A stretch of 64,000 nucleotides of DNA from Bacillota bacterium (GTDB lineage: Bacteria; Vulcanimicrobiota; JAJTBE01). The DNA lies in contig JAJTBE010000030.1 in the NCBI GenBank assembly GCA_021287065.1, forward strand, positions 106 to 64,105, in the 5' to 3' direction. The notes under the pieces are model-generated. The model did no database searches. It saw only the letters and a program-made list of their open reading frames with translations, and had not been told where the DNA came from. Positions 1-64,000 of this stretch are shown here, one piece after another (the stretch's first letter is position 1; each line of letters starts with the position of its first letter). The position numbers were made by a program, and so were the translations under genes.

Positions 1-90
1 GCAAACGGGGGAAGAATCCCCCAAACCCCCTCGGCAGGGAAAAACCACCAATTGCACCGAATCGCAGGCTCCGCCTGCTCCTGGGTTATA
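1..90. repeat. Direct duplication: segment 1-90 is repeated at 586-676 (about 585-bp period), each followed by a MITE copy
   Basis: gcaaacgggggaagaatcccccaaaccccctcggca and ccgaatcgcaggc(t/g)c(c/t)gcctgctcctgggttata occur at both 1-90 and 586-676. Confidence 0.8.
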
Positions 91-375
91 ATGTGCTGCC
101 AAAAAATAGCTCAAATCCCCAGCCCAATACTCTTGTTTTTCAGGGAAGGAGGTTTGGAGGGAAACCCGCTTTTCCAAAAAAGCGTAGTTCCCTCTGACTG
201 TCCCAAACCTCCATAGTCCCCCGGTCCTCAAATCCCCCCCGGTCGGTCCCCCAATTCAAAAGTTTTGGGATGGAGGTCCGGAGGAAACTTTTTTCAAAAA
301 GTTTTCTCTGGGAGCTGGGCGAATGGATACAATTCCCGTGAGCGTTCAGGCAAATTCATGCCTTTATTTGGTTGA
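88..375 (+). repeat. MITE-like interspersed repeat, copy A (variant lacking the 29-bp insertion; left TIR not recognisable)
   Basis: About 85-90% identity to copies at 686-978, 12318-12523, 12606-12915, 33601-33893 (rc), 41937-42262 (rc) and 63253-63558 (rc). Contains the internal palindromes gggaaacccgcttttccaaaaaagcgtagttccc and ggaaacttttttcaaaaagttttc. Confidence 0.85.
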
Positions 376-685
376 ATTGTGTTTTTCGTTGAGATGTCTC
401 ATCTATAATTCCTTTTTTGGGAAACCCGCTTTTTGAAAAAAGCTCGTTTCCCAAACCCTTCAGGCAAAAACTTTCAGTGTATCATTTTTCCGTTCTCTTT
501 GATTTTGCTTTCTGCATATCGAGTTTATTGCTGTTTCTTATTCTCACTTTTTTGAAATCTGCTTCGCAGTTTTCAAAAAGGTTGGCAAACGGGGGAAGAA
601 TCCCCCAAACCCCCTCGGCATTTTTATAATCCGCAAATTCTCCGAATCGCAGGCGCTGCCTGCTCCTGGGTTATATTTCAATGTC

Positions 686-978
686 ATCGTATTAGCAAAA
701 ATCACTCCAATCCCAATCCCCAATACTCCTGTTTTTCAAGGAGGGAGGTTCGGAGGGCAACCTCGCTTTTCCAAAAAAACGTGGTTCCCTCTGAGAGTCC
801 CTAAACCCCCCGGTCCCCTTGGTCGGTCCCCCGATTCAAAAGTTTTGGGAAGGCGGGTGCCCGCCCGCAGGGTGGGCGCGAGGAAACTTTTTTCACAAAG
901 TTTTCTCTGGGAGCTGGGCGAATGGCTATAATTCTCGTAAGCGATCAGGTAAATTCATGCCCTAATTCATGGGCATTG
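686..978 (+). repeat. MITE-like interspersed repeat, copy B (variant with the 29-bp GC-rich insertion gggtgcccgcccgcagggtgggcgcgagg)
   Basis: Aligns along its length with copies A, D, F, H and I. Ends with ...catgccctaattcatgggcattg, the right TIR. Confidence 0.85.
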
Positions 979-1939: not shown

Positions 1940-2653
1940 ATGTTAAAGATGTGTAACAAATTTGTTAAATTTTTCCGTTCGGTGGCCACTATGAAAATCC
2001 ATAATTTGGTTATTCCGGCTTTTGCCATTATTATACTGTTTTCAGGATTCCTTTCCGGCTGCACTTCTCAGGGAAATGCCCATACCGGAAAAAACGGATC
2101 CGGCGGGGGATTTTCCATTTTCGGAATAAAACCTTCACCCTCCCCAAAAATCAAACTCTCCGCAAGACAGCAGAAACTCATCGAAGGCGCCCGATCCAGA
2201 ATCGGTGATGTTTATGACGATTCGTGGTATGCCGACGGCTTCCCCCCAGCCGGGAGAAGCGCTTGTGTTGATATAGTCTATTTCGCTTATAAAAATAATA
2301 ATTTCGACCTGCAGACAAAAGTAAACGAGGATATAAAACAGAACAGCGGACTTTATCCTGCAGTAGGTGATTACGCTATAAACCACCGGCGCTGCCCCAA
2401 TCTTATTGTGTGGTTTTCGAGGTTTGCTAAAAAACTGCCTCTGGAAACGGACAAAAAGCACATTGCTCAATGGAAACCGGGCGATGTGATTTTCTGGAGT
2501 ATGCAGAACGACGGAGTTGCCGACCATATAGGCCTTGTCAGCGATCAGTTCAGCCCCGACGGAGTGCCTCTCGTCATTCATCAGGCTGCACCAACCTGTG
2601 TTGAGGAAAATGCTATGAATACCTGGAAAATTATGGGGCATTTCAGACTATGA
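1940..2653 (+). CDS. Lipoprotein, DUF1287-like (NlpC/P60-related fold)
   Basis: Signal peptide with lipobox LSGC. Motifs SACVDIVYFAY, NHRRCPNL, WKPGDVIFW, DHIGLVSD and GHFRL match what I recall of the DUF1287 family. Confidence 0.6.
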   Translation: MLKMCNKFVKFFRSVATMKIHNLVIPAFAIIILFSGFLSGCTSQGNAHTGKNGSGGGFSIFGIKPSPSPKIKLSARQQKLIEGARSRIGDVYDDSWYADGFPPAGRSACVDIVYFAYKNNNFDLQTKVNEDIKQNSGLYPAVGDYAINHRRCPNLIVWFSRFAKKLPLETDKKHIAQWKPGDVIFWSMQNDGVADHIGLVSDQFSPDGVPLVIHQAAPTCVEENAMNTWKIMGHFRL

Positions 2654-3402
2654 ACAATTCCGGAATTTTACCGTATTTTTCAGTAATTATGCCTGCTTAC
2701 AACGAAGAATCCGTTGTGGAAAATACCATTTCCGATCTGATAACTGAAATGGAATCACCCCGTTATGCCGAATTCTGCAACACTCCCGCAGGGAAAGACT
2801 GGTTTGAGATTGTTGTAACCGACGACGGCAGCAAAGACCGCACTTTCGATTCACTCATCAGAATCGGTGAAAAAGATAAGAGAATCAGGATTTTCAGACA
2901 CGACAAAAACCTTGGCTTTGGTGCAGCTGTTATGAACAGTGTTGGCAGAGCCAAAGGGGAAAAACTTCTTCTGGTCCCCTCCGACGGTCAGTTTGATCCC
3001 GGAGAAATCATAAAATTCATAAAAGCTCTCGACGGATATGATCTTGTTATTGGCGTAAGGCCCGACAGACAGGGATACAACATCTTCAGAAAGTTTGTTT
3101 CGTTTGTTTATATCAGTCTGGTTAAGATGCTATTCGGAAAATCATATAAAGATACCAACTGGGTTCAGGCATGGAAAAGAGATGTCTTTCTTAAAATAAA
3201 ACCTCAGAGCAGCGGGGTTTTTTTTCTTCAGGAAACCATAACCCTCGCAGCAGGTGAACATTTCAGAACCGGGGAAGTGCCCTCAAGCCATATTGCAAGG
3301 GAAAAGGGAAAGGCAAGCGGTGGGAGATTATCCGTAATTCTCTTTACTCTTTTTGAAATGCTGAAATTCCGCTTCACTACAAAAAACCATGGTTCCCTCT
3401 GA
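2650..3402 (+). CDS. Family-2 glycosyltransferase (dolichol-phosphate mannosyltransferase-like)
   Basis: FSVIMPAYNEE, VVTDDGS..., DKNLGFGAA, LVPSDGQFDP and a C-terminal TM helix. Its ATG overlaps the upstream stop. Confidence 0.8.
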   Translation: MNNSGILPYFSVIMPAYNEESVVENTISDLITEMESPRYAEFCNTPAGKDWFEIVVTDDGSKDRTFDSLIRIGEKDKRIRIFRHDKNLGFGAAVMNSVGRAKGEKLLLVPSDGQFDPGEIIKFIKALDGYDLVIGVRPDRQGYNIFRKFVSFVYISLVKMLFGKSYKDTNWVQAWKRDVFLKIKPQSSGVFFLQETITLAAGEHFRTGEVPSSHIAREKGKASGGRLSVILFTLFEMLKFRFTTKNHGSL

Positions 3403-3570
3403 GCGCCCCGATTCCTGAAAATTTCTCCCTGATTCATTGACATCATTTTAGTTTTTTTTTCACAATCTCTTATTCTCTCCTTATGAAAATTTAAAAACTC
3501 ACATGAAGGATAAACTTCCGAATAATTTAATTTATAGATTAGTTGTCAAACAAAAACAGGAGGAGAAACA

Positions 3571-6017: not shown

Positions 6018-6095
6018 AAAAAAACCGGGCAGGATTGAAGCTTCCTTTAGAGTAATACTGAACGGGGATAGTGGAATGTCAGAAAAGGGGTAGAT

Positions 6096-6821
6096 GTGAT
6101 GGAAAAACAGAAACAATATTTTGAAAACCGTGATGAAGATAAACGAACCGATCTTCACAAAGCGGCAATTATCGGCGACAGAAAACTGATTACTTCTCTT
6201 CTTACCAAAGGCGCTGATGTTAACGCCCGGGACATAAACGGAGCTACTCCCCTGCATTTTGCTGCTCTGATGGGACATAAAAAATGCCTGATTATTCTAA
6301 TCTCACATAAATCGGATCCCAATGCCGGAGATAACAACGGGGCAACCCCTCTCCATCTTTCCGTTTATATGGGGCACAAAAAAGCAACCCTGCTTCTGAT
6401 TTCCAACGGCGCCAATATCAACGCCAAAGATAACTTTGGCGATATGCCCCTCGAAATAGCCGTCCGTCAGAATAATAAGGAACTTACCAATCTTCTTCTT
6501 GCCAATGGTGCAGCCGTCAACGAAAGATCGGGCCAGGGCCTCACCGCTCTGCATTATGCTGTTGTCGGCGGCAATGATAATATTGTTTCCCTGCTTCTTG
6601 CCAACGGCGCCGATGCCAACCTGCCGGAAACAACCGGCAGAACTCCCCTCCACATGGCAGCCTACCTCGGATATGGCAAAATTGCGGAAAGTCTGCTTAA
6701 AAAAGGCGCCGCCATTCACGCTGTTTCCGCAGAAAATTTTAATGCCGTTGAACACGCTGTCGCTGCAGGCCATAGGGCATTGGCGGAACTGCTGCAGAAA
6801 GAATCGGGAAAAAGCAGATAA
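6096..6821 (+). CDS. Ankyrin-repeat protein (about 7 repeats)
   Basis: Reiterated G(A)TPLH(F/L)AA...GH...LL...GA(D/N)(V/I)NA motifs. Confidence 0.9.
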   Translation: MMEKQKQYFENRDEDKRTDLHKAAIIGDRKLITSLLTKGADVNARDINGATPLHFAALMGHKKCLIILISHKSDPNAGDNNGATPLHLSVYMGHKKATLLLISNGANINAKDNFGDMPLEIAVRQNNKELTNLLLANGAAVNERSGQGLTALHYAVVGGNDNIVSLLLANGADANLPETTGRTPLHMAAYLGYGKIAESLLKKGAAIHAVSAENFNAVEHAVAAGHRALAELLQKESGKSR

Positions 6822-10173: not shown

Positions 10174-11274
10174 ATGAGCGGAAATCCAAAAGGCGGAAAA
10201 TCGCAGCCTATCATAATTAAAAAAGTAAAAAAAGGAGGCCACGGCGGACACCACGGCGGAGCCTGGAAAGTTGCCTATGCCGACTTTGTTACTGCTATGA
10301 TGGCTCTTTTTATTGTCTTATGGATTGTTGGTCAGAGTGAAAAAGTAAAAGTTGCCATTTCTATGTATTTTAAGGATCCTGAAAAGTTTGAGGAAAAAGT
10401 AAAAGACGGAACCATAGTTCTGCCTGTTTCAACCGGAACCCCCAGTCCCATGCCTTCAGGCAACCTTATGCTGATGAAGACTGAAAAGGACGACACAGAA
10501 CAACTGAAAAAAGAAGCTGAAAATCTCGAAAAAATGGTAACCAGCGATCCTGATCTTAAAAAGTTCAAAGACCAGATTGAAATTAAGATCACTGATGAAG
10601 GCCTTCGTATTGAGCTTTTCGAAAAATCTTCCGGTAACGGAGTCTATTTCGATCTGAGCAGCGCAAAACTTAAACCCGAAGCGGAAAAACTCCTCAACAA
10701 ACTCGCCGGCGAATTAAAGAAACTCCCCAATGATATTTCCGTGGAAGGACACACAGACGCCCGGCAGTTTATTACACAAACCTACACAAACTGGGAATTG
10801 AGTGCAGACAGGGCAAATGCAGCAAGAAGAATCCTCCTGAACGGCGGAATTGCCAAAAAGCAGTTAAGCGAAATCAGGGGATATGCCGACCAGAAACTTA
10901 GAAATCCGGACAGTCCCAATGATTTTTCAAACAGACGCGTCAGTATTCTTCTTAAAAAGAGAATAGTAAAAGAAGATAAACCCGATGACAAACAGGAAAA
11001 GAAGCCTGAAGGTTCAGCTTCTCCTGCTGCTTCAGGCGCACCTGCCGAAGCCCCCGCCGCTCCTGCCGGTGAACATGGCGGAGCACCCGCAGAAGCTCCC
11101 GCTGGTGGACATGGCGAAGCTCCTGCTGCACCTGCAGGCGGACATGGCGAAGCACCCGCTGCACCCGCAGGCGGGCATGGCGAAGCTCCGGCGGCACCCG
11201 CAGGAGAAATGCCTCCACCACCGCCTCCTGAAGCTCCTGCTGCTCCCGCAGCTCCACCTGCCGGAGGGCACTGA
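10174..11274 (+). CDS. motB: Flagellar motor protein MotB (OmpA-like) with a C-terminal GGHGEAPAAPAG tandem-repeat tail
   Basis: GGHGGHHGGAWKVAYADFVTAMMALFIVLW TM/plug region. OmpA-like domain VEGHTDARQF...NWELSADRANAARR. Three and a half 36-bp repeats at 11040-11220. Confidence 0.9.
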   Translation: MSGNPKGGKSQPIIIKKVKKGGHGGHHGGAWKVAYADFVTAMMALFIVLWIVGQSEKVKVAISMYFKDPEKFEEKVKDGTIVLPVSTGTPSPMPSGNLMLMKTEKDDTEQLKKEAENLEKMVTSDPDLKKFKDQIEIKITDEGLRIELFEKSSGNGVYFDLSSAKLKPEAEKLLNKLAGELKKLPNDISVEGHTDARQFITQTYTNWELSADRANAARRILLNGGIAKKQLSEIRGYADQKLRNPDSPNDFSNRRVSILLKKRIVKEDKPDDKQEKKPEGSASPAASGAPAEAPAAPAGEHGGAPAEAPAGGHGEAPAAPAGGHGEAPAAPAGGHGEAPAAPAGEMPPPPPPEAPAAPAAPPAGGH

Positions 11275-11332: not shown

Positions 11333-12304
11333 ATGGTTTACCTTTGTGGAATTTTCAGCCGGCTGCGGAAGAATCCGCTTTCAGGCTTTTCACTTATTTT
11401 TGCTCTGGCTTTCCTCGCCACAGTCTTATTTTTGCCTTCGCCTGCTTTGGCACAACAGGCAAAAATCCGCATTGCAGTTATCGAATTTGAACAGGGCAGA
11501 TACCATTTTGACTCTGATAAAATGACCTACAGGGTTGAATCAAGCCTTATCCGGGATGGTGGTTTTGATGTTGTTTCCGGCAAAAAGGTTAAAGAAGCAG
11601 CATCGGAGCTGAAGCTCCCCGATTCAGGTTTTATGAATCAGGAAGATGCTGTGAAAATCGGTCAGAAAGTCGGTGCCGATCTTGTTGTTATGGGAGAAGT
11701 AACCGAATTCAATGTTGACAGATCTTCATTCAGCCCCGGAGTATCCATAGGCAGGGTGAGAGTGGGACGGGTCTATTCCGTTACTGTAAAACTGGTTCTC
11801 ACATCAAAAATGATTGCTGTTCATACAGGCCAGCAGGTTTTTTCAGAAAGTTTCGAAGGCAACAGCCACAGGGAATCACCTGATGTCGGCTACAGCTATG
11901 TAAATATATCCCTTGACGACCCTGATCCCGACTCAATGGCGCAGAAAGTCCAGAAAGAGGCAATGGACAAACTTACAGCCAAAATCAAACAGTCTGCAAC
12001 CGGAGTAAAAACTGCAGGTCCTGCAAAACCGGATTCCGCATCATTAAACGGTTATCTTCTTGCAGTGGAAAAAGAGCAGATTATTACTGATTTGGGAAAA
12101 GAGAGCAAAGTCACCCCCGGTATGTCTTTTTCAGTTTACGAACTCAAATCCTGGACCCACCCACAGACTGGCAAAAAAGTTACAGAAAAAATGAAAGTGG
12201 CAAAAATCAGGATAGTAAGAGTCAATGAAAACACTTCCGTAGCAGAACTGACCGAAGGAGCTCCCTCCGATATAAAAGCAGGCTTGCTGATAGTTCAGGA
12301 ATAA
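11333..12304 (+). CDS. Secreted protein with a CsgG/LpoB-like N-terminal domain (possibly flagellum-associated)
   Basis: Signal peptide ending ALAQQ. The segment RIAVIEFEQ...GADLVVMGEVTEF resembles the CsgG/LpoB/TolB-N fold signature. Sits directly downstream of motAB. Confidence 0.55.
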   Translation: MVYLCGIFSRLRKNPLSGFSLIFALAFLATVLFLPSPALAQQAKIRIAVIEFEQGRYHFDSDKMTYRVESSLIRDGGFDVVSGKKVKEAASELKLPDSGFMNQEDAVKIGQKVGADLVVMGEVTEFNVDRSSFSPGVSIGRVRVGRVYSVTVKLVLTSKMIAVHTGQQVFSESFEGNSHRESPDVGYSYVNISLDDPDPDSMAQKVQKEAMDKLTAKIKQSATGVKTAGPAKPDSASLNGYLLAVEKEQIITDLGKESKVTPGMSFSVYELKSWTHPQTGKKVTEKMKVAKIRIVRVNENTSVAELTEGAPSDIKAGLLIVQE

Positions 12305-12317
12305 CCTCTATGACTGC

Positions 12318-12523
12318 AATACCACTGAATCAGCAAAATGTGCTCAAAACCCCGGTCGGTCCCCTCTAACCCCCCGGTCTCCGGTCGGTCCCCCAATTCA
12401 AAAGTTTTGGGAAGGAGGTCCGGAGGAAACTTTTTTCAAAAAGTTTTCTCTGGGAGCTGGGCATGCGGCTACAATTCTCGTGAGTGAACAGATAAATAAA
12501 TGCCTTAATTCATGAGCATTGGG
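12318..12523 (+). repeat. MITE-like repeat, copy C (internally deleted; retains left end cactgaatcagcaaaatgtgctcaaa and the right half)
   Basis: Alignable to the left terminus and right half of the full copies. Ends aattcatgagcattggg. Confidence 0.8.
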
Positions 12524-12605
12524 AATACCCCCCCTGCCTGCAATGGTCCCGGCAACCAGGTGCAAACGGGGCAACCCATGCCAATAACAGGGGATGTCCC
12601 CATTC

Positions 12606-12915
12606 CACTGAATTATTACAATTTGCTCCAATTCCCAACCCCATATTCTTGTTTTTCAATGAGGGTGGTTCGGAGTAAACCCCGCTTTTCCAAATAGCGT
12701 GGTTCCCTCTGAATGTCCCCAAATTCCCCCGGTTATCTAACCCCCCGGTCTCCGATCGGTCCCCCGATTCAAAAGTTTTGGGATGGCGGGTGCCTGCCTG
12801 CAGGGTGGGCGCGAGGAAACTTTTTTCAAAAAGTTTCCTCTGGGAGCTTGGCACGCGGTTATAATTCTCGTGAGCGATATGATAAATCCATGCCTTAATT
12901 TATAGGCATTAGGGG
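12606..12915 (+). repeat. MITE-like repeat, copy D (full length, 29-bp insertion variant)
   Basis: Begins ccactgaattattacaa..., ends ...catgccttaatttataggcattagg. Contains both internal palindromes and the gggtgcctgcctgcagggtgggcgcgagg insert. Confidence 0.85.
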
Positions 12916-13204
12916 ATGATCCGATGAGATAATATAAAAATTGTGTTTTTCGCAATTCCCAAACCTATTTCAACATCGGATTTGGTAATCTCCTGTTAAA
13001 CCGGATGCCTCTGGAACCAACCCCCGATTTTAATCGGGGGGTAGGCAGAACCCCATAACCACAAGCCCCAACCATTTCTAATGGTTTCCCTTTTATAGAA
13101 TTGTGCCTTTGAGCTGTAACCGTAAATTTGGGATAATCTGATTTTTACCCTGAAAATACTCTTCGAAACAGGTTTTTACACAATTTCACAATCCTGCGTT
13201 ATGA

Positions 13205-13340
13205 ACAAAACTTACTCAAATCCCCAAGCCCAATACTTCTGTTCTTCAGGGAAGGAGGTTCGGAGGAAAACCCGCTTTTCCAAAAAAGCATGGTTCCCTC
13301 TGACGGTCCCCATTCCCCTTGTCGGTCCCCAAATTCCCCC
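13205..13340 (+). repeat. MITE-like repeat, copy E (left half only)
   Basis: tactcaaatccccaagcccaatacttctgttcttcagggaaggaggttcggaggaaaacccgcttttccaaaaaagcatggttccctctgacggtcccc matches the left half of the element. Confidence 0.75.
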
Positions 13341-13638
13341 TTCAGATATTCCTGCTGCAGCACTGCATAAATCATATTGTTTTTGAACCTAAAGGAAAAA
13401 ATACAGTTATTACGAAATTGGTATTTCCTGCGGTATTTCAGATATGACTGCACTAATTATCCATTAAACTGAAACCCTGAGAAACCGGAATAGCCTGAGT
13501 CTGATGAGGGATTAGAAATATTGCCGTGGTTATTACATTTGAAATGTTGGTTTCTGGCAGATGGTAATATTACTTAAAGCTGAACCATCAGTCTTTATCC
13601 GGAAATAACCCAACCGGTTTTGGTTTGGCTGACATCAT

Positions 13639-14897: not shown

Positions 14898-17800
14898 TTG
14901 GAGGATTGTATGGATTCCGTAACCAACAGAAATATAAACCAGGTGCAGTCGGCTAAGCCGCAGAACCTTCAGCAGGCACAGAGTAAACCTGCTGTCGTAC
15001 AATCAAAACCGGCTCAGGAAACAAAACAACAGGAGTTCGGCAAGGTCGGAGATCTACAGAATCAACCCCCGGGAGAGGCTAATCCCAAAAAAGCTCTCGC
15101 AGCTACAGGAGCACAGTCAAACTCTGCAAAACAGATTTCAGGCTCCACACAGGAGAATAAGCAGAATCAGCAGGCTCAGCAGAAACAACAGCCTTACAAT
15201 CCGCAAAGAGATACAACGGAACTTTACAGATCCATGCATGGCGGGCTTACCGGCATGGGCACAGATGAAAAAGCACTTTTCAAAGCCCTCGACGGCAAAA
15301 ACCCCGAACAGCTCAACCAACTCAGACAGACTTACAAAGATCACTACAAAAGAGACCTCGACGCAGATATTCGCAGTGAACTCTCCGGCGATGATCTCAA
15401 GAGAGCCGAATCCCTTCTCGGTGGCAATCAGGATAAAGCTGACGCAAATTCCCTCCGCAGTGCCATGTCAGGAGCCGGCACCGATGAACAGGCAATTTTC
15501 AGCAAACTTCAGGGCAAGAGTAAAGAACAGATTGATGCTATAAAAACCCAATACAGGGAAACCTACGGCAAGAGCCTTGATGATGATCTCAAAGGAGACC
15601 TTTCCGGCGATGATCTGAAAAAAGCTCAGGCTCTGCTTTCCGGTGACAACAATAAAGCTGATGCGGCAACTCTCCATAATGCAATGTCCGGAATGGGAAC
15701 CGATGAAGCTTCCATCTATAAAACCCTCGAAGGCAAAGACGCCAAAACAAGAGCAGCTATTCAGGACGCTTACAAGCAGGAATACGGAAGAGATCTCAAT
15801 GCTGATTTTAAAGGCGAAATGAAAGGCGCAGAACTTGACCGCGCCAACGCACTTATGGAAGGCAACGGGGCAAAGGCAGACGCCGCTAAGATGCGTGACG
15901 CCATGTCCGGCATGGGAACAGACGAAAATGCCATCTGGCAGTCCCTCGAAGGCAAGAGTGCGGAAGAACGCAAAGCCATTGCCGATGAGTATAAGAAAAC
16001 CTACGGCAGGGAACTCAGAGACGATTTTAAAAATGAAATGAGCGGAAACGACCTGAAACGCTCGGAAACCCTTCTTGATAAAGGCAAACTCTCTGATGCC
16101 GAAAAACTCCGCTATGCAATGGCAGGAGCAGGTACTGATGAAGATACTATCAGAGATGTCCTCAAAGGCAGAAGCAAAGAGGAAATTGCACAGATTAAAT
16201 CAGATTATCAACAGCAGTTCGGAAGAGATCTCACAAACGATCTCAAAGGCGACCTCTCAGGCAGGGATGAATTTGATGCAATGCAGGATCTAAAGGGTAA
16301 ACCTCAGTCCGCGGAAGAAGCACTGCAGAGAATGAACGAAACAAGGGATTATGAAAGAAAAGGCGTTTTAAACCATGTAAGCCGCAACTTTGTAGATACA
16401 TTCTCCGATAAAGGACAGCTCCTCGATGATAATACAAAGAGAGCTAACGAATTCTATAAAGGTGCCATGCAGGACGGCAAACTCGATGAAGGCGAGAAAA
16501 AGAGACTTTCCGAACTTACAGGATATGTTAATGACGATGTGCAGACCTACAGGGAAGCCAAAGACAGCGCTGCTGAAACTGCCGGAACAGTAGCTGCAAC
16601 AGCCGCTTCAGTGGCGGTGGTTGTAGGAACCGCAGGAACAGCAACTCCCGCAGTGGTAGCCCTCGGAGCCGCTGCCACAGCAGGAGCCGGAGCAAGAGTT
16701 ATGACCAAAGCGGCAATCGGCGGCAAAGGCTACGGCTGGGAAGAAGGAGCCATCGATATGGGCATAGGTGCCGTTGACGGAGCTTCAACCGTAGTCGGCG
16801 GAAAAGCAGGCACAATGGCTGCAAGGGCGACCCTCGAAGCTACAGCGGAAAGCACACTGAGAAAAGCCGGCGCTGATACCACTTCACGGCTGGTAACCAT
16901 GGCTTCAGGAGATATTCTTGAAAGAAACGCTGCAAAACGCGTAATGATCGGAGCCGTTGAAGGCGCTGTTGACGGCAGCGCAGGCGGCGGTATGTCAGGA
17001 GCCGGTGCTTCAGTTATCAGAGATGGAACCTGGGACCACGGTTTTGGCGAAGGCTTGAAACGAGTCGGCACTGAAACAGCGATGGGTGTGGGCGTCGGAG
17101 CTGCAGCAGGCGGTGTAATATCCGGCGGAATGTCTGCAAGAGCAGGCGGAGGCTCCCATCTGGTTGATGACTCCAAAGTCTGGATCACTAACAACCATGA
17201 AAACAACTTCGGCAGAAACTATGGACATATGGAAGATATGATCGAGGTCAATAAAGCCCTTGAACCTAATCCTCCGTCTTTCAAATATAAAATTTCCACA
17301 GGCGAAGAAGTTGATCTGAAAATTTATGGGTCAACCAACAAACAGCAAATTGAAAATATCCATCAGTCAGTTAATGACCTTGCGGCAAAAGGTGGAGACA
17401 GAGCTATACTGAACCTTAGGGAAATACACATAAGAAACAAAGTAGGCCAGTTTACCAACGAAGCCGGAGTTCCAATACCCCATTCGGAAGTAGGCGGTTT
17501 AGGCGGAAGTAATTATGGGGAAATGGTAATACAGGCGGAATCTGCTTCCACAAGAAGCGGAGCAGATCATGTCGTTCATCATGAAGTTGGACACAATATA
17601 GATGCAAATATGGGAATTGGACACCACTGGGTTTCTGATGCAGTTGATACGCCATTCGGCAAAGGTGCTTCCGTATCAGCCTACGGTTCGAAAAATGCCG
17701 CTGAAGATTTTGCGGAAACCCATAGAGAGCTGATTTCCAACTGGGATAAAATTCAGGCGGATCCCGATAGATACCTCCATTACAATGGCGATGTCGGAAA

Positions 17801-18290
17801 CAAATACAAATGGATGCTCGAAAATGTTTATGAGAAGGAAATCAAACCTCCCACACCACCTCAGGAATATGCAAGACGGGTTTTTGCAGAAAACAACCCT
17901 GCAGGAGCAGCCGGCGGAACTAACAGTATGTTTGGCGGAATGGGCGGCATGACCGGTGGCGGTGGAATGGGCGGCGGAATGCTCGGCGGCATTAACAGCA
18001 TGCCTCCTGAAAAAATCGCAGAATTCCTGAGAACTCCGGAGGGGAATAAGATGCTTACGAACTTCTCACCTCTGCTTAAAGATGCCGGACCTGAACAGCT
18101 TGAACAGGCTATCGAACAGCTTTCCAGAAATCCCGGTATGCTCGGCGGAGCCGGAGCCTTCGGAGGCGGTATGACCGGTGGCGGTATGATGGGCGGTTTC
18201 GGCGGAGCGGGAAATTCCGGCGGAAGCATGGGCGGCGGAATGCTTGGCGGCCCTCCCAATATGGGCTTCAAACCTCTGAGACCCCAGTAA
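14898..18290 (+). CDS. Giant multidomain protein: Q-rich N-terminus, at least five annexin repeats, a Gly/Ala-rich hydrophobic segment, an MtfA/anthrax-LF-like gluzincin domain (HEVGH...EDFAETH) and a Gly/Met-rich tail
   Basis: Five copies of the annexin endonexin-fold signature with the helix-turn pattern (GMGTDEKALFKAL, GAGTDEQAIFSKL, GMGTDEASIYKTL, GMGTDENAIWQSL, GAGTDEDTIRDVL), each followed by ...Y...YG..L..D(L/F)K.(D/E)(L/M)SG.... The HHEVGHNID sequence at 17577-17594 and the downstream YGSKNAAEDFAETH resemble the M90/MtfA-like zincin HExxH...E arrangement. The tail is GGMGGMTGGGGMGGGMLGG. Confidence 0.85.
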   Translation: MEDCMDSVTNRNINQVQSAKPQNLQQAQSKPAVVQSKPAQETKQQEFGKVGDLQNQPPGEANPKKALAATGAQSNSAKQISGSTQENKQNQQAQQKQQPYNPQRDTTELYRSMHGGLTGMGTDEKALFKALDGKNPEQLNQLRQTYKDHYKRDLDADIRSELSGDDLKRAESLLGGNQDKADANSLRSAMSGAGTDEQAIFSKLQGKSKEQIDAIKTQYRETYGKSLDDDLKGDLSGDDLKKAQALLSGDNNKADAATLHNAMSGMGTDEASIYKTLEGKDAKTRAAIQDAYKQEYGRDLNADFKGEMKGAELDRANALMEGNGAKADAAKMRDAMSGMGTDENAIWQSLEGKSAEERKAIADEYKKTYGRELRDDFKNEMSGNDLKRSETLLDKGKLSDAEKLRYAMAGAGTDEDTIRDVLKGRSKEEIAQIKSDYQQQFGRDLTNDLKGDLSGRDEFDAMQDLKGKPQSAEEALQRMNETRDYERKGVLNHVSRNFVDTFSDKGQLLDDNTKRANEFYKGAMQDGKLDEGEKKRLSELTGYVNDDVQTYREAKDSAAETAGTVAATAASVAVVVGTAGTATPAVVALGAAATAGAGARVMTKAAIGGKGYGWEEGAIDMGIGAVDGASTVVGGKAGTMAARATLEATAESTLRKAGADTTSRLVTMASGDILERNAAKRVMIGAVEGAVDGSAGGGMSGAGASVIRDGTWDHGFGEGLKRVGTETAMGVGVGAAAGGVISGGMSARAGGGSHLVDDSKVWITNNHENNFGRNYGHMEDMIEVNKALEPNPPSFKYKISTGEEVDLKIYGSTNKQQIENIHQSVNDLAAKGGDRAILNLREIHIRNKVGQFTNEAGVPIPHSEVGGLGGSNYGEMVIQAESASTRSGADHVVHHEVGHNIDANMGIGHHWVSDAVDTPFGKGASVSAYGSKNAAEDFAETHRELISNWDKIQADPDRYLHYNGDVGNKYKWMLENVYEKEIKPPTPPQEYARRVFAENNPAGAAGGTNSMFGGMGGMTGGGGMGGGMLGGINSMPPEKIAEFLRTPEGNKMLTNFSPLLKDAGPEQLEQAIEQLSRNPGMLGGAGAFGGGMTGGGMMGGFGGAGNSGGSMGGGMLGGPPNMGFKPLRPQ

Positions 18291-21250: not shown

Positions 21251-21423
21251 CAGTAACCCCACGACGGTAGGCTCCCGCCAGCAACTGCCGGATCGCAGGC
21301 ATCCCGCCTGCCCCCGGTCAGCCAACTGTCAGCAACCTCATAACCACAATCTCCGCCAACCCCTGCCTGATTTCTCCCGAAAACCGGAGCAGTGTTTACC
21401 TTTGATAATTCCGGATTCAGGAT

Positions 21424-33445: not shown

Positions 33446-33600
33446 AATTCCTTTATAAATTTATTGCTGATTTATGCCATTTATATTAGAACGGAAGACG
33501 GGAAAAATCAAGGGGTCCCTCTGAACAGAGTCAGGCTGGTTAGACCGGTTTCTTTAAGAATGACGGTTTCACCTTGAAATATATAAAGATTGGGGGCGGG

Positions 33601-33893
33601 TCAATGCCTATGAATTAAGGTATGGATTTGTTCGAACGCTCACGAGGATTGTAACCGCATGCCCAGCTCCCGGAGAAAAGTTTTTAGAAAAAGTTTCCTC
33701 CGGACCTTCATCCCAAAACTTTTGAATTGGGGGACCGACCGGGGGAATGGGGACCGCCGCAGGGTTTGGGGACCGTCAGAGGGAACCACGCTTTTTTAAA
33801 AAAGCGAGGTTGCCCTCCGAACCTCCCTCCTTGAAAAACAAGAGTATTGGGTCCGGAATTTGAGTGAATTTTACTAATTCAGTGGCATTGGGA
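33601..33893 (-). repeat. MITE-like repeat, copy F (full length, reverse orientation, no 29-bp insert)
   Basis: Reverse complement aligns end-to-end with copy A/D. Termini are ccaatgccactgaattag... and ...ccttaattcataggcattga. Confidence 0.85.
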
Positions 33894-33907
33894 CCGGGGT
33901 ACCGTTA

Positions 33908-34636
33908 TTATCTCCCAGCTTCTCCTGACATCCTCTGCAGCTTATGTGCGAAATTTGTTGCCGAATGTTTGTCTATTTCGCTCATTTCGTTGAATTTTAT
34001 ACCAATGCTGTAGTTTGCAGTATCTCCGCTGGACCGCTCCTCAAGTTTCTGTGCCCGTGTAACGAAGCCTGTGAGTTCGCTTCTGAAGTCCATGGACATA
34101 ATCTGAACGATAAGCTCCTCGTCTTTCATAAACGGTGAAGGCGACAGAAAAGACAGCCCGGCGATGCTGAAATCGTTAACCCGGACTGCAAGCCATTCTT
34201 CGTCCTGATTGCGTCGGACTTTGGCGGGCAGATCGGTGTTTATGCGGATATGTTTTCTTTCCACCACATCCTGCCATTCAAGCTGCTCAGGGTGCTCCAG
34301 AAGAATAATCGGAGGCTTTCTTTTCCATGCGATTTTTACCAGTTTTGATGAAAACCGGGCTACCTTGCCTTCACGGCTTACCGAAATAATAATATTCTGG
34401 CCTTCCCTGAAAGGAAATGGAAATTCCTCCATAAGCTCGGGAATATCAACGGTAAAATGCTCGTCTGTTGCTGAGTGGATAACGCCTTTCCACTGTTTTG
34501 CCACAGCTTCGTCCTTCTGAACATTTATCGTATCCCCGGTGAACAGTTCGATTTTCCTCTCTATCACCGGTGCAGCTTCTTCCTGCTGCTTTTTCTTCCC
34601 GAATAGATTTTTGAATATGTTTATAATCAGAACCAT
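33908..34636 (-). CDS. YcgR-like flagellar brake protein (YcgR N-domain plus PilZ c-di-GMP-binding domain)
   Basis: PilZ motifs RKHIRI (RxxxR) and NDFSIAGLSF (DxSxxG). The start overlaps the rsmG stop. Confidence 0.75.
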   Translation of the reverse strand: MVLIINIFKNLFGKKKQQEEAAPVIERKIELFTGDTINVQKDEAVAKQWKGVIHSATDEHFTVDIPELMEEFPFPFREGQNIIISVSREGKVARFSSKLVKIAWKRKPPIILLEHPEQLEWQDVVERKHIRINTDLPAKVRRNQDEEWLAVRVNDFSIAGLSFLSPSPFMKDEELIVQIMSMDFRSELTGFVTRAQKLEERSSGDTANYSIGIKFNEMSEIDKHSATNFAHKLQRMSGEAGR

Positions 34637-35415: not shown

Positions 35416-35555
35416 TATCCGTTCACTTTCATTAATTAAAACATTTTTTATGCTGATTCTAATTGTCCGATATTATCTCCACAATGTCAATAAGAAGCAG
35501 AATTCACTCTGTAATATTGTTGATATTTTTGTGTGAAGGGGGGGGCAATGTCACT

Positions 35556-35690
35556 GAATCAGCAAAATGTGCTCAAATCCCCAATCCCCAATCCCCAATC
35601 CCCAATACTTTTGTTTTTCAAGAAGGGAGGTTCGGAGGAAAACCGCTTTTCCAAAAAAGTGTGGTTCCCTCTGAGGGTCCCTGTCTTAAA
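35556..35690 (+). repeat. MITE-like repeat, copy G (left half only, with a (ccccaat)x3 micro-repeat)
   Basis: cactgaatcagcaaaatgtgctcaaatccccaatccccaatccccaatacttttgtttttcaagaagggaggttcggaggaaaaccgcttttccaaaaaagtgtggttccctctgagggtccc. Confidence 0.75.
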
Positions 35691-41751: not shown

Positions 41752-41973
41752 ATGCAAATGTCCTTTATAAAGTCTGTTATGCCTGATACTGAAGTTTGGG
41801 CATTGGGGAGCAGGGTTGACGGAACCTGTCATTCCGGGAGTGATCTTGATATTGTGAGCAGAAATCCCATTGATTTATCCAAACCGGCCGGCAGTAAGGC
41901 AAATATACTCAAACAGAAGCTGTCTGAGGGGAATATCCCCAATGCCCATGAATTAAGGCATGAATTTGTCTGA
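41752..41973 (+). pseudogene. Truncated minimal-nucleotidyltransferase (MNT)-like ORF running into a MITE copy
   Basis: ALGSRVDGTCHSGSDLDIV resembles the GS...SDxD nucleotidyltransferase motif. The ORF is short at both ends and its 3' end (NAHELRHEFV) is encoded by the terminus of MITE copy H. Confidence 0.4.
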
Positions 41974-42262
41974 TCGATCATGGGAATTATAGCCGTTTGC
42001 CAAGCTCCCGGAGAAAACTTTTTTGGAAAAAGTTTCCTCGCGCCCACCCTGCGGGCAGGCACCCGCCATCCCAAAACTTTTGGAATTAGGGACCCGACCG
42101 GGGACCGTGGGGATCAGGGACCGACCGGGAGTTTAGGGGACCGTCAGAGGAGACCACGCTTTTTTGGAAAAGCGAGGTCTCCTCCGAACCTCCTCCCTTG
42201 AAAAACAAGAGTATTAGGCTGGGGGATTTGAGTGAATTTTTACTAATTCAGTGTTATTGGGG
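41937..42262 (-). repeat. MITE-like repeat, copy H1 (full length, reverse orientation, 29-bp insertion variant)
   Basis: Aligns with copies B, D and I. Contains cgcgcccaccctgcgggcaggcacccgcc. Confidence 0.85.
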
Positions 42263-42390
42263 ATTAGAGACTGTTAGAAGGAACCACGCTTTTTTAAAAA
42301 AGCGAGGTTGCCCTCCGAACCTCCCTCCTTGAAAAACAAGAGTATGAGGTCCGGGATTTGAGTAAATTTTACTAATTCAGCGGCATTGGT
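42263..42390 (-). repeat. MITE-like repeat, copy H2 (partial, second palindrome half) in tandem with H1
   Basis: ggaaccacgcttttttaaaaaagcgaggttgccctccgaacctccctccttgaaaaacaagagtatgaggtccgggatttgagtaaattttactaattcagcggcattgg. Confidence 0.8.
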
Positions 42391-42456
42391 TCTGATTCCT
42401 GATTCATTCAGAAATGAGATCCTGAAGAATTACCATATCATCAGGCATAGCAGGGT

Positions 42457-56807: not shown

Positions 56808-59800
56808 CTAACTGAGCTGTTCAACATCGGCAAGTTCTCTCTTGACTTCCTGCAGGGCATAGCTTTCGATAACATCGCCGGGCTGCATTCCGCCAAATTT
56901 GTCAACGCCGATACCGCACTCGAAGTTAGTTTCAACTTCCTTAACATCATCTTTGAAGCGGCGGAGCGAATCGATTTTGCCTTCGAATACGATAACGCCG
57001 TCTCTGATGACTCTGGCTTTTGAACCTCTGGTAATCTTACCTTCGGTAACATAGCAGCCGGAGATGAATCCAACTTTGGATACTTTGAATACCGCTCTGA
57101 CTTCCGCTCTGCCAAGCTGAACTTCTTCAAACTCGGGTTTAAGCAGACCGAGCATAGCAGCTTTAACATCGTCGATTATGTGGTAGATTACACGATAAAC
57201 TCTTATATCAATCTGTTCCTGCTCTGCGAGCCTCTTGGTGATGGGGTCGGGCCTTACATTAAAGCCGATGATGATAGCGCCTGATGCTTTAGCAAGCATA
57301 ACATCGGTTTTATTGATTGCGCCGACACCGCCGTGGAGAACATTGATGTTAACTTCCACATTGGACAGTCTCTGCAGAGAGTGGCGGACAGCTTCCAGAG
57401 AACCCTGAACATCAGCTTTAAGCACGATGTTAAGATCCTTGACTTCCCCTGCCTGCATCTGACGATAGAGGTCGTCGAGGGAAGTTCTTGAAAGATTCTG
57501 GAGCTTCTTATCTCTTGTTGCAGCTTTGAGGCTGTCGGAAATTTCGCGGGCTTCCTTTTCATCTTCGATAGCCTGCAGATGATCGCCAGCTTCAGGTACG
57601 CCTGAAAGACCGATGATTTTAACAGGAGTTGAAGGGAATGCCTTTTTAACTCTCTTGCCTTTGTCGTTAAGCAGTGCTTTAACTCTGCCCCACTCGTTGC
57701 CTACCAGAACCACATCGCCCACATTGAGGGTTCCGTTCTGGACCACAACGGTGGCAACCGGACCATGTCCCGTATCCATAAAGGATTCGATAATAGTGCC
57801 TTCTGCCAGACGGTGGGGGTTGGCTTTGAATTCCTGAACATCTGCAACAAGGAGAACCATCTCAAGGAGATCTTCGATTCCCATACCGCTTCTTGCGGAT
57901 ACGGGGACCATAATTACATCTCCGCCCCAGTCTTCTGAAACGATGTCATGTTCAGCCATCTGCTGTTTGACTCTCTCAGGGTTTGCCTCGGGCTTGTCAA
58001 TTTTATTAATGGCAACGATTACCGGTACGCCTGCTGCTTTGGCATGGCTGATAGCTTCCACTGTCTGAGGCATAACGCCGTCGTCGGCTGCTACTACCAG
58101 AACTGCGATGTCGGTAACTCTTGCTCCTCTGGCTCTCATCTCCGTAAATGCTTCGTGGCCCGGTGTATCGAGGAACACAATTTTGCGATCTTCGATTTCC
58201 ACTGTGTAGGCACCGATGCTCTGTGTGATTCCGCCGTCTTCGTGGGCTGCCACATTGGTTTTGCGGATGCAGTCCAGAAGTGATGTCTTACCGTGGTCAA
58301 CATGTCCGAGAACCGTAACCACAGGAGGACGGGGCGAAAGGAGCTTCGGATCGTCAATTTCCTCTTCGGGTTTGACTTCTTCTTCTTTTTTCTGCTCTAC
58401 TCTGAAACCGAATTTTTTAACTATGGAAGCGGCAAGATCAAAGTTGAGGTTCTGGTTGATTGATGCCATAATGCCTTTAAGCATGAGGATCTTAATAATC
58501 TCATTAACCTGAACTTCGAGTTTCTTGGCAAGGTCGCCCACTGTGATTGATTCAGGAATTTCCATCCATTTGACGGTCGATTCCTTCATTGTAACTTCAG
58601 GCACCTTGGCTTCTCTTCTGCGTCTATCCCTGTGTCTTGAAGTAAGGGAGAAAGTTTTTGTTCTTGTTGCAAGAACAGGCTTTACTACCTTTTCTTCCTC
58701 AGGCTTTTCCTCTACTACAGGAGGAACCTGCCCTGTCGTAGGGGTGATTATGACTTCCATCTCGTCGCTTATGTCAACTTTGAAGTCTTTGTGAGTTTTC
58801 TTTTTTCTGGCTTTTGCCTTATCAGGATCGGGGGTGCTGTATTTGTTTTCAGCCTTAAATCCTCTGTCCTTTTCTTTGCGGGTCTGTTCCTTTACCTCCG
58901 GAGGCGGGGGAGCATCTTTCGGACCTCTGGGACCTCTGGTCTGTTTCTTTTCGAAAGGTTTCCGATCGTCGGCATCTTTATCGGGAACATTACCAAAACC
59001 ACCGCCGAAGCCGCCTCTGCGATCGCCTCCGCCTGTGCGGGGCTGATAAGGTCTGCCTTCACCGGGTCTTCCGCCTTCTCTGGGGGGGCGCTGTCCGTCG
59101 GGTCTTCCCTGATAAGGAGGTCTTCCGCCTTCAGTTCTTCCCTGATACGGAGGTCTTCCTTCGCCGGGTCTTCCGCCTTCTCTGGGGGGGCGCTGTCCAT
59201 CAGGTCTTCCCTGATACGGAGGTCTTCCACCTTCAGTTCTTCCCTGATACGGGGGTCTTCCGCCTTCAGTTCTTCCCTGGTACGGAGGTCTTCCTTCGCC
59301 GGGTCTTCCGCCTTCTCTGGGGGGACGCTGTCCATCAGGTCTTCCCTGATACGGGGGTCTTCCCTCTCCCTGAGGTCTTCCTTCGCCGGGTCTTCCGCCT
59401 TCTCTGGGAGGACGCTGTCCATCCTGTCTTCCCTGATACGGAGGTCTTCCCTCTCCCTGAGGTCTGCCTTCGCCGGGTCTTCTGTCATCTCTTCTGTCGT
59501 CTCTGGGGGGACGCTGTCCGTCCTGTCTTCCCTGATACGGAGGTCTTCCTTCGCCGGGTCTTCTGTCATCTCTGGGGGGTCTGCCGTCTTCTGATCTTCC
59601 CTGATAAGGGGGTCTGCCTTCGCCGGGTCTTCTGTCATTCTGTGGTCTTCTGTCATCACCCTGACGTCTGTCCTGTGAATAAGGAGGAGCGGTTCTTGCA
59701 GGTCTTTCTGTCTGTTCATGGCGAACAGGAGCCTGCGATCTTTCGCTTGTTTCCCGCGGGCGGGCTTCAGCGGCCGGTCTCTCGGCAGCTTCTGATTTCG

Positions 59801-60263
59801 GAGTCTGAACGGGTTTTTCCTGGGGAACGGGCTGATTGACAACGGGAGCGGATGAACGGACTTCTGGTCCTGCTGTTACCTGTTCTTGAGGCTTTACGGC
59901 AGCAGCCTGAGCCGGTTCAGCGGGCCTTGGAGCCTGCTGTACAGATCTCTCCTGAGCTACGGGAGCAGTTCCTGCTCTCTCAGCCGGTTTGTCCATAGCG
60001 GCCGGTGCTGGTCTTTCCACCGGGCGGGTTGATTCCACAACCTGAGGCTGCGGCTGTATAACTCTTGGAGGCATAGGTTTGCCTTCCTTCATAGCTTTCT
60101 TCCTTCTTCGAAATTCGGCAATTATTTCATTTGCCATAGTCTGATCAATCGAAGAAGAATGGGATTTTACTGTAATTCCGCGTTCGTCCTTCAAATAATC
60201 GATTAAATCTTTGTTTGAAACATCCAGTATTTTGGACAGATCAAATATTCTAACTTTTGTCAT
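56808..60263 (-). CDS. infB: Translation initiation factor IF-2 with a long Pro/Gly/Arg-rich tandem-repeat N-terminal region
   Basis: Start at [11 protein letters not shown] with RBS aaggga; the ORF track's earlier Met lacks an RBS. G-domain [29 protein letters not shown]. About 15 degenerate [23 protein letters not shown] units encoded at about 59030-59650. Confidence 0.9.
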
Positions 60264-60588
60264 CCTGTTCCCTTTCTTGAGGTTCACCCTTCATACCGGT
60301 CTGGTTCTCCGAAATCTGCTGAAGAATCGCCGCAAGATCTCCTGACAGGCGATTTAGATGCATTCTGCGGAATCGTTTCCCGGTAAGAAACTCCTTAATA
60401 CATCCATTATTCAGGCAGATATAAATTCCTTTTCCCTTTAATGTCCTCTTTTGGTCGTGATGGAGCAATCCATCTTCCGACCTGCCCATCCTCAGAAGCT
60501 CCTGCTTGGGGCGGAGCTTTCTGCAGACGATGCACATTCTGAGTGGAATATGTTTTTTTTCGACATTATTATTAATAATCGTCGTCAA
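60250..60588 (-). CDS. ylxR: YlxR/DUF448 family protein (start uncertain, possibly TTG; 3' end overlaps the infB start)
   Basis: IPLRMCIVCRKLRPKQELLRM...GKGIYIC..NGC matches the YlxR Cys-containing motif. Sits between nusA and infB as expected. Confidence 0.6.
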   Translation of the reverse strand: MTTIINNNVEKKHIPLRMCIVCRKLRPKQELLRMGRSEDGLLHHDQKRTLKGKGIYICLNNGCIKEFLTGKRFRRMHLNRLSGDLAAILQQISENQTGMKGEPQEREQDDKS

Positions 60589-63171: not shown

Positions 63172-63252
63172 TTAAGCCGCAGAGCGGCGTTGATTGTATA
63201 TAAATAAAACCTCGCTGTTTAAGCGGGGTTTTTGTTTTTCGGGGGATTTGTT

Positions 63253-63558
63253 GCAATATCCATGAATTAAGGCATAGATTGGTCTGAATGATCGCGGGTA
63301 TTGGAGCGGTCTGCCCAGCTCCCGGAGAAAACTTTTGAAAAAGTTTCCCCGCGCCCACCCTGCGGGCAGGCACCCGCCAGACTAAAACTTTTGAATTGGG
63401 GGACCGACCGGGGGGGTGAGACCGATGGGGGGTTGGGGACCGTCAGAGGAAACCACGCTTTTTTGGAAAAGCGAGGTCTCCTCCGAGCCTCCTCCCTTGA
63501 AAAACAGGAGTATTGGGCTTGGGATTGGAGTGGTTTTTGCTAATTCAGCGGTATTGCG
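63253..63558 (-). repeat. MITE-like repeat, copy I (full length, reverse orientation, 29-bp insertion variant)
   Basis: Aligns with copies B, D and H1. Termini are ...ccatgaattaaggcat and ctaattcagcggtattgcgg. Confidence 0.85.
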
Positions 63559-63559
63559 G

Positions 63560-64000
63560 GAAACCCCTATTACAACCGCAAGCGTTCGCCAGCGATTGTA
63601 GGAGGGCTTTGTAAGCCCGACGCGGACCCGCAGGGTTCGCCCTCACTGCAAACTCAAACCTCAAAATCCCCGAAAAAAGCGGTAAACTCACGCCAATTGT
63701 AGGGGAGAGCCAATGTGCTCTCCCGCAGCAACCTTCCGCCAACCGGCAGCAGACATCATAAAGAAAACAAAACGCCAACACTGCCGGATCGCAGGCGTCT
63801 CGCCTGTCCCACCGGTTAAACAACCTCGCATGCTCTCCGCAATCTCCGAATGGAAAATTCCTGACAACTGCGGGGTTCGAAAACAAACCTGTCTCCACTA
63901 AAAATTGAATTATGGTAATGAGGAGCTAATGGCGGGGGTCCAGTCTTTCAGGGATTTTCCGGCGTAGGTGTCCAATCCGGGCGAACCTGCCGGTTCGCGT
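63560..64000. repeat. Non-coding GC-rich structured region with internal sub-repeats and a shared motif ctgccggatcgcaggcNtcNcgcctgNccc
   Basis: attgtaggagggctttgtaagccc / attgtaggggagagccaatgtgctctccc sub-repeats. The motif at 63783-63812 recurs at 21286-21315 and, in related form, at 60-85 and 645-670. Confidence 0.5.

Follow-up and report, generated by a model that had tools for sequence, protein, structure and literature searches.

The whole stretch of DNA analysed here, 64,000 nucleotides long and hereafter called the window, carries between its genes a family of short repeats represented by ten full or partial copies, which lie at six intergenic loci and on both strands. All ten intervals were recovered by blastn with two reference copies and by an nhmmer profile made from an alignment of the copies (alignment A1), with E-values ranging from 1e-97 to 1e-38. 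The match spans obtained in this way are 86-384, 674-986, 12312/12359-12533, 12595-12922, 13186-13336 and 35541-35687 on the + strand, and 33593-33895, 41928-42261, 42258-42391 and 63243-63561 on the - strand. These searches bear out the ten-copy interspersed family, intergenic, in both orientations and bounded by terminal inverted repeats (TIRs), which had been proposed by a sequence-only reading of the window. Full copies measure ~290-325 bp (205-325 bp when the internally deleted copy is counted in), and the list of open reading frames (ORFs) shows no overlap of any copy with a credible gene. The ORFs found within the copies are short and their frame is not conserved. No relative was found anywhere for the only long one, at 12510-12854 on the - strand, and the six-frame translations of three copies, compared with 5.8 billion proteins, returned neither a relative nor spurious ORFs from other copies.

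Six of the copies are full length. The focal one, at 12600-12911 on the + strand, is 312 bp long (nhmmer E=4.7e-90, together with blastn and alignments A1 and A2), starts with CCATTCCACTGAATTA, finishes with ...TTAATTTATAGGCATTA and contains a GC-rich indel. The same indel is present in the full-length copies at 679-978 (+), which is preceded by a leader of ~90 nt, 41940-42259 (-) and 63254-63556 (-), and it is missing from those at 88-378 (+), where both TIRs are decayed, and 33602-33890 (-), whose left TIR equals the consensus perfectly. These five copies were delimited by blastn and nhmmer along with the alignment or, for 33602-33890, a TIR scan. An internally deleted copy of 205 bp at 12317-12521 (+), found with the alignment and nhmmer, keeps both TIRs and lacks the 5' hairpin module. 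The remaining three copies, all of them detected by blastn, the alignment and nhmmer, represent 5' portions of the element: a 5'-module fragment with no recognisable TIR at 13207-13340 (+), which stops in the C-rich centre; a centre-truncated copy at 35546-35687 (+), with the left TIR, the 5' module and a (CCCCAAT)x4 expansion; and a 5' half copy at 42260-42388 (-), which breaks in the C-rich centre. Besides these ten, nhmmer pointed to a solo palindrome similar to hairpin 1, GGGAAACCCGCTTTTTGAAAAAAGCTCGTTTCCC, at 419-452 (+; E=1e-3), which is probably a relic fragment, and to a degenerate fragment at 3365-3418 (+; E=2e-5) comprising hairpin 1 and the start of the centre, which overlaps the last codons of the ORF at 2650-3402.

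Several copies lie very close to their neighbours. The internally deleted copy begins 12 nt past the stop codon of the ORF at 11333-12304, and the copy at 33602-33890 is located 17 nt downstream of a PilZ-domain gene (33908-34636). The copy at 41940-42259 abuts the truncated copy 42260-42388 with its left end and the remnant of a nucleotidyltransferase-like ORF with its right end; as the half copy breaks off exactly where the full one begins, the pair is a nested or adjacent insertion. At the beginning of the window, the ~90-nt leader is duplicated along with the element (1-378 and 585-978), the two leaders being 86% identical. A composite unit of ~590 bp was also considered, given the recurrent distances of 596 and 590 between the starts of copies, but the spacers are unrelated and the idea was rejected.

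The internal organization of the family is modular, with a 5' hairpin module, a variable C-rich centre and a 3' module that includes an optional GC-rich hairpin. Positioned on the focal copy (+ strand), hairpin 1 is a long imperfect stem at 12670-12712 with the tip CGCTTTTCC-AAATAGCG (RNAalifold helix, columns 75-119), followed by the GC-rich hairpin region at 12784-12813, which holds the indel (columns 222-240 of alignment A1; helix 5), and by hairpin 3 at 12815-12838, which is the perfect palindrome GGAAACTTTTTTCAAAAAGTTTCC, with 11+11 paired positions. Out of the two perfect palindromes initially described, GGAAACTTTTTTCAAAAAGTTTCC is thus indeed perfect, but the other one (CGCTTTT..AAAAGCG) merely caps a longer stem, which is imperfect and has ~22 bp. 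In a similar way, the GC-rich insertion reported for about half of the copies does exist as an indel, found in four of the seven copies having the 3' module in alignment A1, but its size is ~19 nt and not 29 bp, since the 29-nt string quoted for it takes in flanking bases that are shared by the family.

The six full copies show pairwise identities of 73-84% (mean 79%), and the top value obtained by blastn, 92%, corresponds to one partial pair only. With a pairwise divergence of ~21% the copies are old, and neither the 85-90% identity previously given for them nor the recent mobilisation suggested on this basis finds support in the measured values. Conservation is unevenly distributed along the element. 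Column identity peaks at 91% in hairpin 3 and reaches 87% in hairpin 1; elsewhere it is 75-86% in the TIRs, 73% at unpaired positions and 62% in the centre. Internal hairpins that are better conserved than the TIRs are not what would be expected if dead transposon copies simply decayed neutrally. Such a conservation could come from a constraint acting on the master copies for their transposition, or from host selection on the hairpins, and the data favour neither.

The TIRs are ~17-19 bp long and asymmetric, with CAATGCCACTGAATTAG on the left and, read inwards, CAATGCCCATGAATTAAGG on the right (the right end reverse complement being CAATGCCCATGAATTAAG). The 18-mer of the left TIR occurs nine times in the window with up to three mismatches, compared with 0.09 occurrences expected by chance. 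Immediately outside the focal copy we find what looks like a decayed target-site duplication (TSD) of 10 bp, with GGGGATGTCC at 12590-12599 (+) matching GGGGATGATC at 12912-12921 (+) at 8/10 positions. The boundaries of this duplication were placed by analogy to the insertion sequences (ISs) described below, and its length is that of the perfect TSDs of three of them. A match of at least 8/10 has a probability of ~0.006 in a null drawn from window positions when boundary shifts of up to 2 nt are allowed. Among the six copies that could be evaluated, only the focal one has a convincing TSD (8/10), two match at 6/10 and three show none. Decay of the TSDs is expected at a pairwise divergence of ~21%, and the flanks would likewise be mixed up where copies recombine with one another.

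The sequence of the ends indicates the type of mobile element to which the repeats relate. For the IS4 subgroup, the literature (PMC2266710, Table 1) gives '-AATR--------WTW----' as end consensus, together with direct repeats of 10-13 bp, and both TIRs of the repeat fit this consensus. The ends of IS4 itself in E. coli K-12, read from NC_000913 as a control, are TAATGCCAGTCAGTTAAGC and TAATGCCGATCAGTTAAGG, and are flanked by a 12-bp duplication; counted from the terminus, the right TIR of the repeat matches TAATGCCGATCAGTTAAGG at 15 of 19 positions. The IS231 subgroup, whose end consensus is CAT-------AA--TAA--- with direct repeats of 10-12 bp (PMC2266710), was examined as another source of the ends and rejected, as the IS4 consensus fits better: positions 1-3 are CAA instead of CAT, and positions 11-12 are GA instead of AA.

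Full ISs bounded by the same type of ends were found outside the window. A scan of metagenomes for the right TIR gave 23 loci, and in three of them an inverted left-type end is present 1.4-1.6 kb away. The IS in contig L008 is 1591 bp long, has the exact left end CAATGCCACTGAATTA, a 459-aa ORF and a perfect 10-bp TSD, while the one in L028 is 1562 bp long, with a 490-aa ORF and also a perfect TSD of 10 bp; L026 contains a degraded IS copy. The ORFs of the metagenomic ISs carry the Pfam domains Nterm_IS4 and DDE_Tnp_1 and exceed the cutoff of the NCBIfam model NF033592 ('IS4 family transposase'), and the L008 protein is 29% identical to InsG of IS4 over its full length. Shorter elements were also detected that share these ends and have unrelated interiors, one of 153 bp (L005:5848-6000) in the metagenome-assembled genome (MAG) of a relative whose phosphoglycerate kinase (PGK) is 72% identical, and another of 214 bp in a metagenome (L016).

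When the L008 transposase was used to search a protein database, a protein (P0163) annotated as 'MAG: IS4 family transposase [Firmicutes bacterium]' was retrieved. Its contig, L031, contains an IS of 1701 bp at 31-1731, with CAATGCCACTGAATTAAGG as left and CAATGCCCATGAATTAAGG as right inverted repeat, a perfect 10-bp TSD (GGACCGGGGG) and an uninterrupted transposase gene at 125-1504 coding for 459 aa. Both ends of this IS read AATG at positions 2-5 and TTA at positions 14-16, fitting the IS4-subgroup consensus. P0163 reaches 165.9 bits on NF033592, where the cutoff is 115, has the Nterm_IS4 and DDE_Tnp_1 domains, and shows the Y(2)R(3)E(6)K signature as Y-HE-R-WEC-E-TTFDEV-K (motif YHERWECETTFDEVK); its identity to InsG is 24%. 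Compared with the 1400-1650 bp typical of the IS4 subgroup, the L008 and L028 ISs fall within the range and that of L031 slightly above it. The L031 IS and the repeat have their terminal 16-19 nt in common, which makes P0163 a plausible candidate for the transposase recognising the TIRs that the sequence-only reading had proposed to look for. Moreover, the 30 nt flanking this IS on the left match the centre of the repeat (93%, E=6e-6) and the 36 nt on its right side resemble this C-rich centre as well, which indicates that a further copy of the repeat was the insertion site of the IS. Using two IS4-type transposases as tblastn queries, no homologue was detected in the window, and the copy hosting the IS therefore lies outside of it.

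Several observations connect this IS with the genome from which the window derives. The PGK encoded in the window is 100% identical to MCE1245571.1, 'MAG: phosphoglycerate kinase [Firmicutes bacterium]', and the accession of P0163, MCE1246442.1, comes 871 numbers later, as expected for one annotated MAG. The only contig that could be retrieved for P0163 originates from run SRR17235527, which also holds the contig with the PGK of the window. The L031 IS is thus in the same genome as the window, an assignment that builds on the common run, accession block and organism label and on the flanks derived from the repeat, rather than on a closed assembly. With regard to other genomes, the PGKs of the nearest relatives are 72-73% identical and come from other MAGs, and a contig with a 97%-identical PGK is 1.4 kb long. 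The short-read contig L001 (SRR17235527), which carries the PGK, ends on both sides within TIRs of the family, and this is the behaviour of a high-copy repeat in a short-read assembly.

[quoted passage not shown] The MITE-like interpretation already advanced for the family gains support from an IS with matching TIRs that belongs to the same run and accession block and sits inside another copy. In a blastn-short comparison of three MITE copies with the ISs of L031 and L008, the alignments cover nothing but the terminal 15-19 nt. Type II MITEs are defined by a similarity to an IS that is confined to the TIRs (PMC10969869). As only the TIRs are shared, the family corresponds to type II and not to type I MITEs, the internal-deletion derivatives; a type I assignment was discarded since there is no similarity to the ISs beyond the TIRs in that comparison.

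According to the model that we propose, the transposase of the IS would bind the ends shared by both elements and move the MITEs in trans through the cut-and-paste mechanism of the IS4 family, duplicating 10 bp of the target with each transposition. The C-rich centre of the MITE may be a favoured target, and such a preference would explain at once why an IS is nested there, why copies abut and why the half copies all end in the centre. The half copies and the clustering would result from nested insertions and later deletions. Most of the copies in the window would be old, which could account for the decay of most TSDs and for some TIRs being no longer intact. We infer the movement of the MITEs from these traits, as neither an empty site nor an insertion polymorphism was seen.

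Other origins for the repeats can be envisaged. A purely local process, where one intergenic segment spreads by segmental or tandem duplication instead of transposition, was contemplated by the sequence-only reading itself and would account for the duplicated leader and element at the left end of the window, as well as for the clusters at 12317-13340 and 41940-42388, but it is difficult to reconcile with copies on both strands that have defined TIR boundaries. The copies are dispersed over six loci along 63 kb, their flanks are unrelated, and so are the spacers between clustered copies; in addition, one more copy, the one that carries the IS, is located beyond the window, and full ISs with 10-bp TSDs are delimited by these same ends. 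We regard local duplication as very improbable. It is scarcely credible, on the other hand, that the elements are REP/BIME-like units spread by a RAYT (a tyrosine transposase of the IS200/IS605 type) or other non-DDE relics: they are palindrome-rich and intergenic, and a separate family of ~30-nt REP-like palindromes does occur in the window, but with ~300 bp they are roughly tenfold the size of a REP, whose units have 20-40 bp, and they show IS4-type TIRs of 17-19 bp plus the remnant of a TSD of ~10 bp. To our knowledge, IS200/IS605-type elements have neither TIRs nor target duplication. Furthermore, the autonomous element with matching ends encodes a DDE transposase.

The repeats could also be, above all, genes or signals for structured RNA (small RNAs, mRNA stabilisers, terminators or insulators), or MITEs with hairpins co-opted by the host. 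RNAalifold draws eight local helices in the alignment, and one copy folds better than its shuffles on its own strand (z=-3.5), but the reverse strand folds almost as well (z=-2.0), as expected of DNA palindromes. The high column identity of hairpins 1 and 3 relative to unpaired positions and TIRs would fit an RNA role, as would the changes found on both sides of three stem pairs; these double changes are, however, mostly confined to two closely related copies, and 94-203 of 500 column shuffles reach the observed covariation values. In three cases a same-strand gene has its stop codon 12-68 nt before the start of the copy, yet taken together the copies face either way with respect to the adjacent genes. 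No T-run comes after any of the stems. Sites resembling promoters or terminators are no commoner than in shuffled sequence and none of them is consistently placed in the element, and Rfam gave no match either at the gathering score for the whole window or at E<=1 for the cluster at 12300-13350. The conserved RNA role initially considered for the family, be it as terminator, insulator or small-RNA gene, is left unsupported by these null results in the covariation, Rfam and promoter/terminator tests, and we judge an RNA or regulatory nature of the repeats to be improbable. It is unlikely that the internal hairpins are under selection, as a stabiliser of mRNA 3' ends, as a protein-binding or nucleoid-organising site, or as a cis site for transposition, with the centre perhaps offering a 'safe-harbour' target to the own IS and to sister MITEs.

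The distribution of the MITEs was explored in several collections. The nhmmer profile of the family had no match in 63 kb around the PGK of three relatives (L004, L005 and L007), whose PGKs are 71-73% identical to that of the window. Neither an internal 24-mer of the MITE searched in metagenomes nor a scan of viral contigs gave a match, and the interior of the family is therefore unseen in those collections. Among the plasmids of PLSDB, blastn found no match for a MITE copy and no close DNA relative of the IS, for which the only match was a 99-nt segment (73%) within a Streptomyces IS4 transposase gene. The description of the family as apparently undescribed is plausible for this particular set of sequences, but elements of this kind are well known.

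From a practical point of view, these blocks of ~300 bp should be masked in annotation as IS4-family MITEs, and not treated as genes or RNA candidates, and they explain breakpoints in the short-read assemblies of this organism. They also offer a clean pairing of MITE and IS in an uncultured lineage, where mobilisation in trans and self-targeting are made directly testable. The family seems to be uncatalogued so far; within a well-known class of mobile DNA it is an ordinary example, which opens no new question.

Several known systems come close to this one. Compared with E. coli IS4 and the IS4 subgroup (De Palmenaer, Siguier and Mahillon 2008, PMC2266710), whose end consensus and IS4 ends agree with the TIRs as detailed above, the partner IS likewise encodes its transposase in a single ORF, which combines the Nterm_IS4 and DDE_Tnp_1 domains and bears the YREK signature, and its TSD has 10 bp; the elements in the window differ from IS4 in having ~300 bp and encoding nothing. 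MITEs associated with IS4-family elements are also reported from archaea; in Haloquadratum walsbyi, for example, a MITE of 237 bp and 34 copies has been linked to ISHwa2, of the IS4 family, with a direct repeat of 5 bp (PMC3852290, Table 4). By its description, that MITE is also short and non-coding, with inverted repeats of ~17 bp and an IS4-family partner in the same genome, but the host is archaeal, the sequence is presumably unrelated and the direct repeat has 5 bp instead of the ~10 bp seen here. With type II MITEs in general (PMC10969869), the window family has in common its intergenic location, its AT/GC-structured sequence and its richness in hairpins, and nothing essential differs. 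Its own traits are the modular architecture and the fact that it is apparently a target for its own IS.

Similarities extend to IS231 and MIC231 in the Bacillus cereus group: there, too, the element is non-autonomous, has the ends of an IS of the IS4 family and is moved in trans, and the IS231 ends resemble those found here. MIC231 elements carry passenger genes and are kilobases long. IS231A, in work attributed to Hallet et al. 1994, reportedly prefers targets of the GGG(N)5CCC type. Finally, the pneumococcal BOX and the neisserial Correia elements are interspersed, intergenic, hairpin-forming and modular, with variable internal parts, and Correia elements duplicate TA. We know of no transposase for Correia elements and of no IS with matching TIRs for BOX. 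The sequences of both are unrelated to the family described here, for which, in contrast, a likely partner IS has been identified.

In two places of the window, at 1-90 and 585-675, a leader of ~90 nt (gcaaacggggg...ctcctgggttata) lies directly upstream of a copy of the MITE, the ~300-bp intergenic repeat family with IS4-type ends, and the two leader copies are 86% identical. Such a duplication of the leader directly before two MITE copies indicates that leader and element were duplicated together as a local tandem unit. In the partial copy 35546-35687, the motif CCCCAAT, a single unit in other copies, is expanded to four tandem units at ~35579-35606.

The reading frame of a 73-aa ORF on the plus strand (41752-41973), which bears a weak likeness to the N-terminal third of a nucleotidyltransferase domain (Pfam NTP_transf_2, E=9e-4, below cutoff), directly enters the right end of the MITE copy 41940-42259, and this ORF may represent a gene cut short by insertion of the element. 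A degenerate fragment at 3365-3418, derived from hairpin 1 and the beginning of the centre, runs over the final codons of the ORF 2650-3402, stop codon included, which suggests an old copy partly taken into the 3′ end of this gene.

Outside the window, a common junction, atggtctgattgtaa|CAATGCCCATGAATTAGTGAGATGGCAAGG, is shared by five JGI metagenome contigs from different samples (L010, L014, L018, L021 and L025), with neither a partner end nor a transposase within reach of it. The junction could correspond to a further element with a MITE-type end, or to an IS lost beyond the contig ends. Regarding the host, the Firmicutes/Bacillota phylum label of the MAG may be wrong: the window codes for kinases with BamB/PQQ-like repeats, its nearest relatives (L004 and L007; PGK 71-73% identical) carry genes for TonB-dependent receptors, and for one related MAG the label reads Eremiobacterota.

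Three large ORFs of the window contain in-frame tandem repeats and code for repetitive proteins that have nothing to do with the MITE: 56808-60287 on the minus strand (period 33 nt, 58993-59657), 10174-11274 (33 nt, 11026-11204) and 14898-18290 (~219 nt, 15332-16252). In the genome of a relative, L005, a distinct palindromic repeat (tagtgtctgtccctaattaac...ttagggacagacacc) occurs twice, at 6035-6110 and 6207-6290, both copies adjoining the 153-bp IS4-type MITE of that contig. The window has its own intergenic family of ~30-nt palindromes, CCGRATCGCAGGC-N3-5-GCCTGYCC with a GCAGGC/GCCTGC stem, at 57-84, 642-669, 21288-21317 and 63785-63813, which has no relation to the MITE and looks REP-like.
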